DNA from: Octopus sinensis
Taxonomy: Eukaryota
DNA: 64,000 bases
NCBI RefSeq assembly: GCF_006345805.1
Contig: NC_043005.1
Coordinates: 94,984,001 to 95,048,000 of the forward strand
Reading direction: 5' to 3'
Both the position numbers and the translations under genes were made by a program. Shown here piece after piece: positions 35,407 to 39,274 of this stretch (positions within the stretch are counted from its first letter, which is position 1; every line of letters begins with the position of its first letter). The notes below the pieces were generated by a model. It saw only the letters and a program-made list of their open reading frames with translations. It did not search any database and had not been told where the DNA came from.

Positions 35407-36256
35407 CATTGAATAACGCAGGGCTAAACAATTTACAGAATATAGCATTGGGAAAGAGAAGTGACAACAATAAAATAACAGTTCCAAACTTTGGCACGAG
35501 GATAAAAGGAGTGGACGACCTCGGTGCAATTTGAGCTCAGAACGTAATGACGAATGAAATGCTGGTAAGCATTTTGCCCGGCGTGCTAAGGAGTCCTCTA
35601 GTTGCCGTCTTGCAAAGCAACGAAATAATCATTCTACATTAGGTAGAAATTTTTAGAGAGGTTAATCGATTATATCGACTCCAGTGTTTAGCCTCGGCGA
35701 AATTTGAACTCCGAATGTAAAGACGGACGATGTGCCGCTAGGCATTTTGCCCAGCGTGATAACGATTCTGCCAACTCGCCGCCTTAGCAATAAAATAATC
35801 CTTTCTGCTATAGACACAAGACCATAAATTCTAGGGGAAGGGACTAGTCGATTACATCGACCCAGCGCATAACTGATTTTTAACTTATCACATCGACCCG
35901 TTTTTCACTGATATTTAATTTATCGAAGTCGAAAGGACGAAAAGCAAAGTCGACCTCGGCAGAATTTGAACTCAGAACGCAAAGACAGGCGAAATACCTA
36001 TTTCTTTACTACCCACGAGGGGCTAAACACAGAGGGGACAAACAAGGACAGACAAACGGATTAAGTCGATTATATCGACCCTAGTGCGTAACTGGTACTT
36101 AATTTATCGACCCCGAGAGGATGAAAGACAAAGTCGACCTCGGCGGAATTTAAACTCAGAACGTAACGGCAGACGAAATACCGCGAAGCATTTCGCCCAG
36201 CGTGCTACGTTTCTGCCAGCTCACAGCCTCAATAATAATAATAATAATAATAATAA

Positions 36257-36855: not shown

Positions 36856-36904
36856 TGATGATGATGATGATGATAATAATAGTAATAATAATGGTTTCAA
36901 ATTA

Positions 36905-38147
36905 GACTTCTCAAAACAGAAAGGAGAACGCGAATTCGAAGACTACAGATCCAATCCATGACAGGAACTGTAAAAATCTGTAAAACTTACCAGAAATTTA
37001 TCATTTAAATATATATGTAACGGTAGAGGTTACCAATTGTAAGCGATGAAAGAATTGTTTTTGTAACGATACCTATTATGGTGCAACGTCGTGATCGCTA
37101 TTTTGTAACGGTTGGTTCTTGGGAAGGCTGCAATGCTCTTGTTCGGGGTCACCACTTGTAACGATTTAGTTTTAGTTGAAGTCGAGGGTCACCAATTGTA
37201 ACGGTTAAGGTTTTAATTAGTGTAGTTACCATTTGTAACGGGTAAGACTGAGTAGGTACACAATATTATGAAATGTCGGAGTCAGCAGTTGTAACGATAA
37301 AAATTTGTTATAACGCATGAAGTTTTAAGGAAATATTTATTTACCGTAACGCTACAATACCTTGCCTCGACGGGCAGGTTATGATAAATCCAAAAGCATG
37401 CGCAGTAAAGTTTGTGTTTGTGTTCTCTTCATTGTTTAGTAGTAATTACAGAGAGTGATAGAATGATGTCGTAAGAGAACAGAATTAGAGCTAGTGAGAG
37501 TTGTAGGGTTGTGGGACGTTGTCTCACAGTTGTTGACAGTAAACTTCATTTCTCCCTCTGACCAAGGTTCTAGCTGGTCAGTCATCACCGAAGTGATTGA
37601 ACTATCGTTTTGCTTGGGGTTTATGCTTTTATAACTATCCAGAAGGATAGGCGTATCGTTGAGAAAAACAGATGTAGTTGGTGGTCTTGGTATCTCTGTT
37701 CTGGTTTTTGGTAAAGTAGAAGAGGTTTATAAGGGTCAAGTGGTGAAGACATTATTTCAGCCTAGCTAAAGGCATCTGGAAAATGTAAAACTGTTGTCAG
37801 AGAAAAACCATTGTTCCACCGTGGGAAAAGCTCTGTTGCAGCGTTAATTTAAATTTGGCTATGGTGGATCGAATCCACTTCATGCCTGCAAGATCCTACA
37901 TATATATGAGCATGTCTAGATATGCAGCTATATGCATGAGAATGCATACATTAATAAAAAAAATACAAATTTGCACATATACATACATACATACATACAT
38001 ACATACATACATACATACATACATACATACATAGAAACAAAAATACCCTGTTGCTGATGTTGAAATTCCAGTGAAGGAGCCTTGAATCTAGGTTCGAAAC
38101 TAGCTCTTTCTCTATTGGCAAGAAATCTTGAAATGAAACTGAACAAT
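36905..38147 (+). mobile_element. 3' remnant of an RLE-type non-LTR element, interrupted by a solo LTR
   Basis: LLKTERRTRIRRLQIQSMTGTVKICKTYQKFII* resembles an RLE ORF terminus. The end aaatgaaactgaacaat resembles the Dong 3' end at 6241. Confidence 0.55.
37016..37900 (-). mobile_element. Solo LTR (885 bp) with an array of PBS/terminus units at one end
   Basis: TGTA...TACA termini and a TATA 4-bp target duplication (37012-37015, 37901-37904). Minus-strand TATAAAA at about 37630 and AATAAA at about 37340. Confidence 0.75.
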
Positions 38148-39274
38148 GACCCAGACAAGATGATTGTGTTGTGAACTTGAAACACCGAAAGAACAAACAA
38201 ATATTGTATGCTGTAGGTCTGTCTGAAGAATTAGATCTAAGCGATTGATGTTCGTGGTGACAAGCAACTCATCAATCGTGATCTTATTCTGTCCACAACA
38301 TGGCCTTTGGAGGTCATGAAAAAACTACGATAAAATACGTTACTATATTTTAATGTTCAGACAGCGAATTGATGGAATGGTGAGAGCGTTGGAAAGAATA
38401 TTTTGAAGTTTTTGTACGGATACTTTCCCTTTCTGGGTTCAAATATCGCCAGGATCAACTTTTATTTTTACCATTCGAGGACCGATGAGTACAGTGCTAG
38501 TCAAATTCTGGGGTTGATTTTCTCCCCACCTCCCTCTTTCTCTCTCTCCCACAAAGTTGTGCTGTGAAAAGGGTTAATCCAGCATGTTTATGTCACATCA
38601 GCTTCGCACACATAAACACACATATGAGTATATATTTGTGTGGTTGAGATGCTCGCTTTACAACCACACAATTTCGGGTACAATCCCACTGCGCAGCATC
38701 TTGGGTACTATTGTCCAGAACCGACCAATGCTTTGCATGCGAATTTCATAAACAGAAACTGTATGGAAGCCCGTCTTATATATGCATATATATGTATTAT
38801 GTTGTTATTGTTGTATTGATGTGAGGTACATATTAGAATTACAAAATTTTGAAAATATTGCTTCAGAGTTGTTATATAAGAAAACAGGAGTCTGGAAATT
38901 TTGGAAGCATTTTTATTCACCATTAGACATGTCTCATTTCCTAATAGGAATCATATCATTATTTGATTCTCTTTCTGAAGAATTTCTAATAAGAAATTTC
39001 TTGCATGTTTATCCAACATGTACAATTTCGTGATTCCTATTATCAAATAAAACATGTGTAATGGTGAATAAATAATATTAAAAAGTTTTCCAGATTCCTG
39101 TTTCGTTTTATATACACACACACACACATATATATACACACACACATACATATAAGTGCAAACAAGGGAGTCAGAGAAAGGCAGAATGCTACTTATATCT
39201 GAACACTACTACAGAAATATTCTTTTAAAAAAACTTTTCTTCTAATTTTTCTAAATTTAACTATTTAATCGTTA

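Follow-up and report, generated by a model that had tools for sequence, protein, structure and literature searches.

An array of att and tRNA-Trp PBS modules at the U5 end of a non-coding octopus LTR retrotransposon, with integration ends at several of its modules

The U5 end of an LTR in the genome of Octopus sinensis stacks about six copies of a module composed of the element's own att (CGTTACA) and a tRNA-Trp PBS, and copies of the same family end at five different att modules, which are real integration ends. An LTR retrotransposon normally has one PBS and one LTR end, both at fixed positions. The LTR under study lies in a stretch of 64,000 nucleotides (NC_043005.1, positions 94,984,001 to 95,048,000 of the forward strand), hereafter referred to as the window, and all coordinates are counted from its first letter. 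According to the reading we favor, the array extends across the LTR/leader border of a non-coding element, and the ends of individual copies are probably set by alternative priming by the reverse transcriptase (RT) of a helper.

The feature at 37016-37900 is a solo LTR (885 bp) of a dead, non-coding LTR retrotransposon family of about 3 kb, with its sense on the minus strand. Family copies align to 37016-37900, and the termini read TGTAG...CGTTACA in sense, so that TG...CA ends are present. The host site is a TA run within another high-copy repeat, and the TATA flanks on either side of the LTR are of low complexity. Contigs from four DNA runs bridge 37012 to 37900 without the element (within the surrounding high-copy repeat), which fixes the borders of the window copy. 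The depth of DNA contigs changes in steps across the array, and these steps are not taken as copy numbers. Family alignments, flanking TATA, and these empty-site contigs thus agree with the initial annotation, which took 37016 for the true element end. The high-copy repeat split by the LTR occupies 36890-37015 and 37901-38150, many family copies are located in TA/CA/TG microsatellites, and an abundant SINE-like repeat with an (AAT)n end is present in several nested copies at 35500-36230. The locus holds no tRNA gene and no long coding ORF.

In two-LTR copies a purine tract (PPT) adjoins the LTR end homologous to 37900, which identifies the minus strand as the sense strand. On this strand a predicted TATA box (TATAAA, 37628..37633) is kept in 58 of 79 aligned copies and a predicted poly(A) signal (AATAAA, 37336..37341) in 67 of 75. 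The array of modules, at 37016..37315 of the same strand, is located 3' of AATAAA in sense and faces the interior in two-LTR copies. Given the sense strand, the placement of AATAAA and TATAAA makes the array the U5, and the region had indeed been taken from the start for the U5 end of an LTR. Genome-wide (2.72 Gb), a search with the array as query yielded 668 candidates and one with the LTR core 1676, of which 40 each were scored; the number of LTR copies thus corresponds to at least 1676 candidates.

Exact TGTAACG occurs seven times in the array (37016, 37062, 37104, 37157, 37197, 37234, and 37290) and only 10 times in the whole window on both strands. In 2000 dinucleotide shuffles of 37016-37351 this motif has a mean count of 0.09 and a maximum of 2 vs 7 observed, while for junctions of a PBS-like word and att the mean is 0.001 and the maximum 1 vs 5 observed. 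The initial annotation had counted about 8-10 copies of TGTAACG or its variants over 37016..37351. Seven exact copies stand; the array, however, ends near 37315 rather than 37351, and no copy was seen to end at the variant sites 37309 and 37345. PBS-like words were confirmed at 37143-37154 (exact), 37181, 37276, 37029, and 37225, but units B1, B2, and H have no PBS. The 3' end of tRNA-Trp had been given correctly: the genome's own tRNA-Trp(CCA) genes with CCA added are complementary to the PBS-like words, and 37143-37154 matches them at 12 of 12 positions. These genes amount to 49 pattern matches, and ARAGORN identified tRNA-Trp in 2 of the 6 loci fetched. About 19 tRNA-Trp-like gene ends are clustered at G000:C6:69.58-70.14 Mb. 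Both the matches to the genome's tRNA-Trp and the shuffle test bear out the proposal that the array units are junctions of att and a tRNA-Trp PBS.

All units are read on the minus strand and are named A to H from the end of the LTR inward. Unit A (37016..37037, 22 nt), which forms the end of the window copy, consists of a degenerate PBS (9/12) fused to the terminal att and resembles a shortened unit F. It has only 7 matches in the genome, which marks the window copy as a rare long form. Units B1 and B2 (37038..37081) are att-like starts without a PBS, with mean PBS matches of 2.9 and 4.1 of 12, respectively. Unit C (37082..37103) carries a decayed 15-nt Trp PBS, which matches at 8/12 positions here and better in other copies. 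An origin of unit C from a CGT microhomology jump that created an att was considered and rejected, since CGT belongs to the PBS and an older subfamily has no att at this place. Unit D (37104..37156) combines the exact 12-nt Trp PBS (37154-37143) with a leader-derived spacer and att. The next three units have att copies used as ends and PBS sites of differing quality, namely a 9-nt match with a 1-nt bulge in unit E (37157..37196), a weak site (7/12) in unit F (37197..37233), and a 10/12 match in unit G (37234..37289). Unit H (37290..37315) contains the innermost att, which is rarely an end (one exact TSD, in L130, and the 3' LTR of L072).

As for the ends of other family copies, these were tiled with single real units as references, and the 4 bases before the outermost unit were compared with the 4 bases after the opposite LTR end. 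An exact 4-bp TSD is present at 22 of 51 automatically tiled ends, a set that includes mis-tiled 5' LTRs, counted as misses, and leaves out four duplicate loci, inner 3'-LTR ends, X-starting arrays, and loci without a found end. Without simple TA/CA flanks the value is 18 of 37 vs a mean of 1.1 and a maximum of 6 in 10000 shuffles, and TSD lengths of 3, 5, and 6 give 1, 0, and 0 exact matches, respectively. The exact TSDs are distributed among units E, G, F, H, and A (9, 6, 5, 1, and 1, respectively, the last being the window copy), and within the sample the att of unit E (37157) serves as the end most often. Since 4-bp TSDs are found at five different modules, the att copies can be regarded as genuine sites of integration. 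The five A-ended copies with both ends have TSDs with 0-1 mismatch, four of them with a 1-base mismatch, and the TSDs of L012 and L028 are possibly coincidences with family sequence. A second sample, drawn by pattern (the first 30 of 182 junction matches, judged by eye), added 6 family LTRs in which both ends were present; 3 of these have exact TSDs, two of them at further short units.

These ends also bear on whether the array might be nothing more than a diverged minisatellite that has no connection with retrotransposition. In favor of such a repeat, homology exists among the spacers of D, X, and Y, and modules are locally duplicated. However, the array is absent from Tandem Repeats Finder rows among those listed, unit lengths vary from 19 to 56, tRNA complementarity stays at a fixed 2-3 nt from att, and TSDs fall at unit borders. 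The minisatellite reading is refuted by the TSD test, and we consider it almost certainly wrong.

The spacers had been described as unique, and the array as superficially CRISPR-like. Across the family the spacers are not all unique, as the one in D shows homology with two leader units, X (p 0.001) and Y (p 0.005). No significant homology was detected among the remaining spacer pairs tested, and comparison of the spacers with coding relatives and the rest of the window gave no match. The notion of foreign, CRISPR-like spacers has to be abandoned: they derive from the element's own leader/U5, as indicated by the D/X/Y homology and the likeness of A to a shortened F.

Long arrays from 17 copies resolve into 16 tilings, all 17 having one relative module order. 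Modules are both lost and duplicated, with D present three times in L073 and Y twice in L101. Non-canonical joins adjoin unit borders in 30 of 44 cases, which is partly built into the tiling, since it begins only at att-like places. Mean PBS quality (of 12) is highest for D (10.9), followed by G (9.2), X (9.1), E (8.7), C (8.4), and F (6.6), and thus peaks at mid-array. The tree built from 53 U3 cores is star-like and weakly supported, and U3 and U5 recombine; on this tree the end class changes 29 times vs 33.0 in shuffled data and a minimum of 6 (as low in 5 of 200 shuffles). The E class alone requires 13 changes vs 13.2 shuffled, and no single class is clustered. Branch lengths of this tree are not read as ages, because L106-L134 were picked for likeness to the window.

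The array had been proposed to be an ordered, polar record of serial capture. In the strict form of this proposal modules were added singly at the outer end of the LTR, H being the oldest and A the newest, and the end classes represent successive subfamilies. Such growth would agree with the relative order kept in 17 of 17 arrays, with the PBS plus leader-type sequence inside the LTRs of L183 and L207, and with the single PBS of coding relatives. It is contradicted, however, by the PBS quality peak, by the loss and duplication of modules (L073 and L101), and by the number of end-class changes on the star-like, weakly supported U3 tree. In addition, the array continues into the leader, and outer modules are present in the own leader of short-ended copies. 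Strict serial capture as the sole process is therefore largely refuted, and we regard it as unlikely; the idea of a polar record falls with it. Growth of the LTR by capture of its own PBS junction, in contrast, does apply to some LTRs, such as L183 with an 18-nt tRNA copy in its 3' LTR.

Two-LTR copies consist of an LTR, about 1.5 kb of internal sequence, and a second LTR. With a total length of 2.5-3.9 kb (n = 6) they stay below 4 kb, the size of a TRIM-type non-autonomous element. Full elements have two direct LTRs, a PBS after the 5' LTR, and a PPT before the 3' LTR, and the PBS they use is that of tRNA-Trp, as expected in the initial annotation. No match was obtained by tblastn (E 0.01) with 8 protein pieces of coding relatives against 17 family internal regions, and three copies with internal sequence had no gag-pol in the 10 kb beyond them. 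Identity between paired LTRs is 93.4-97.0% (5 copies), and the family therefore looks old and inactive. No RNA data set was listed as containing the LTR, and contigs of four runs guessed to be RNA cover family copies and carry no strand, start, or level information.

The array of these two-LTR copies spans the border between LTR and leader: an inner module forms the end of the 3' LTR, and additional PBS copies lie in the leader. For 5 of 9 copies (L072, L076, L088, L097, and L179) the 3' LTR end corresponds to an att of the 5' array that is directly followed by a PBS-like site, with at least one additional PBS-like site left in the leader; the match of the 3' end to the 5' array is weak in L088, and that of L101 is approximate. 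Three of the 9 (L083, L100, and L183) have a 3' end without a counterpart in their own 5' array and are probably recombinants. Outer TSDs are mostly unclear, with 1 of 6 seen (L100, simple TATA). The extension of the array into the leader means that the LTR end shifts inward as well as outward. Arrays with other spacers occur in more divergent subfamilies (L098, L100, L200, and L207). Divergent LTRs with their own att and PBS arrays and different spacers, including other 22-nt units, were seen in L195, L200, and L207. L178 and L180 are two-LTR derivatives of very small size that have lost most of the 5' LTR and the leader. A tRNA-Arg-like site before L025 is a single sighting, matched from recall.

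Coding relatives of the family contain RT, RNase H, and integrase domains (Pfam), and two of them, L185 and L186, have a CHCC gag motif; the array family itself encodes no gag. TGTAGTG...CGTTACA ends, a Trp PBS, and a 4-bp TSD are common to both, which makes these CsRn1-like Ty3/gypsy elements likely helpers that would mobilize the array family in trans. The CsRn1 clade of Ty3/gypsy (CsRn1, PwRn1, AgCR) is described as having a tRNA-Trp PBS, a 4-bp TSD, TGT...ACA ends, and a CHCC gag (PMC2582038), and as well represented in cephalopods (PMC6238403). The array family also has the tRNA-Trp PBS and the 4-bp TSD, both marks of this clade, as well as TGT...ACA ends, with CHCC found in its octopus coding relatives. 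It differs from the clade in being non-coding and in the number of its PBS copies, which reaches about seven where the clade has one. Similarly, ta-TRIM of taeniids, with lennie as helper, is described as an LTR-noncoding-LTR element below 4 kb with a PBS, a PPT, and many solo LTRs, and its helper was deduced from common ends, PBS, and TSD length (PMC4558846). The octopus family differs from ta-TRIM in having LTRs of about 600-900 bp, an element length of about 3 kb, multiple att-PBS modules, and a variable LTR end. Judged by these resemblances, the array family appears to work as a TRIM-size non-autonomous element served by CsRn1-like helpers.

Engineered retroviral vectors with two PBSs were reportedly shown by Voronin and Pathak in 2004 to initiate at more than one PBS per RNA. 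In contrast to these vectors, the octopus array is natural and has an att before each PBS, so that each initiation could yield an integrable end. A tRNA-like sequence is also said to have been found inside Candida LTRs. Drosophila gypsy likewise has more than one PBS (two tRNA-Lys sites), but its second site is described as located at the 3' end, dispensable, and without alternative LTR ends (PMC1635307). The main text of a paper on Octopus vulgaris repeats (PMC13282606) does not mention a PBS, and its supplements and library may hold the array family. Within the reach of our literature search, which lay outside subscription papers, Repbase, and Dfam, no description of a natural att and PBS array was found.

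Copies of the tRNA itself are present at several junctions. In L183 a perfect 18-nt copy of tRNA-Trp is flanked by att on both sides within the 3' LTR; no other exact att-PBS(15+ nt)-att unit exists in the genome. L212:1470-1520, at the outer end of a family LTR, holds a 24-nt tRNA-Trp copy with one mismatch, which reaches past the usual 18-nt stop. Among 68 junctions of att and a long PBS, 30 were inspected by eye; 29 belong to other families and have a single PBS, and 1 comes from the array-bearing family. This value and the single exact unit indicate that correction of the PBS by tRNA is rare in the array family.

As for the coding relatives, a 10-nt PBS is the common form among them. In one coding family (that of L184; L136, L144, L164, and L202-L215) 8 of 17 PBSs are 10 nt long and 9 of 17 are tRNA-matched over 18-20 nt. 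The two PBS forms of this family are equally spaced and provide a natural record of how the PBS is corrected by its primer. In L140 and L149 the 18-nt end landed wrongly on AT/GAT microhomology deep in pol, and in L161 att is duplicated and the U5 end doubled through an inverted switch. These three copies, together with the PBS forms of the coding family, indicate that the RT acting here copies 18 nt of tRNA-Trp and misjumps at the junction. L137, L140, L149, and L161 are internally deleted or inverted elements with a misplaced 18-nt tRNA copy, L140 being a mini-element (LTR-PBS-pol tail-PPT-LTR). A second group with a perfect Trp PBS comprises L135 and L139-L163 (19 loci, clustered by U5). 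In many of its copies an internal non-coding stretch of about 500 bp is common to the group and the array family (75-90%) and is a candidate shared packaging signal.

We infer that the modules arose through errors at the PBS junction, and that the end of a copy depends on which of the alternative PBSs is primed. The helper RT would prime at any adequate PBS, and the att just upstream would become the new LTR end. With an 18-nt tRNA copy at its end that mismatches the short genomic PBS, the plus strand would land out of register, and such a landing on another PBS or on 2-3-nt microhomology might create a new module. Alternatively, template switching between repeats may build modules and also delete or duplicate them, deletions and duplications of this origin being established for retroviruses (PMC3187697). 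The window copy would then be a rare long variant with all modules A-H copied into the LTR.

A counterpoint to multi-site priming is provided by the H ends (L072 and L130), which follow a PBS mismatched at the third base and thus a poor primer site. They would be accounted for if a single PBS were used and integrase or a host nuclease later cut the cDNA at an internal att, which would also explain the rarity of tRNA-corrected PBS copies. These two observations leave room for trimming, and alternative ends could arise at internal att sites in this manner. However, in two-LTR arrays the commonest ends E, F, and G sit just upstream of the best PBS copies, and the prevalence of the 10-nt PBS in coding relatives speaks against later cutting as well. 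Moreover, retroviral integrases trim about 2 nt and not tens of bases. As the general source of the ends, later cutting seems improbable.

Alternative priming is compatible with a further possibility, namely that the extra PBSs are selected, either as traps that compete with the helper for its tRNA-Trp primer or, as had been suggested initially, as decoys for 3' tRNA fragments. Arrays that differ in their spacers are present in several subfamilies (L098, L100, L200, and L207) despite the tendency of RT to delete direct repeats (PMC3187697), and other families have a single PBS at 29 of the 30 long-PBS junctions judged by eye. Most extra PBSs, however, are degenerate, and relaxed constraint on a non-coding leader suffices to explain them, which leaves selection doubtful. 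A broader suggestion, which we put forward tentatively, is that of a multi-primer leader: a non-coding retrotransposon might have evolved and kept a ladder of att and PBS cassettes because any of several tRNA-Trp sites then yields an integration-competent genome. This would raise the element's share of the helper's primer or protect it from silencing by tRNA fragments, and each cycle would set the LTR border anew.

The element is dead, and no host function is indicated. In practice, LTR annotation tools will divide one such family into several LTR lengths. The hundreds to thousands of genomic copies record which natural primer and att sites were used, and they form a fossil record of the degree of shortening or mismatch that is tolerated in a PBS, of errors of plus-strand transfer, and of the lengthening and shortening of U5.
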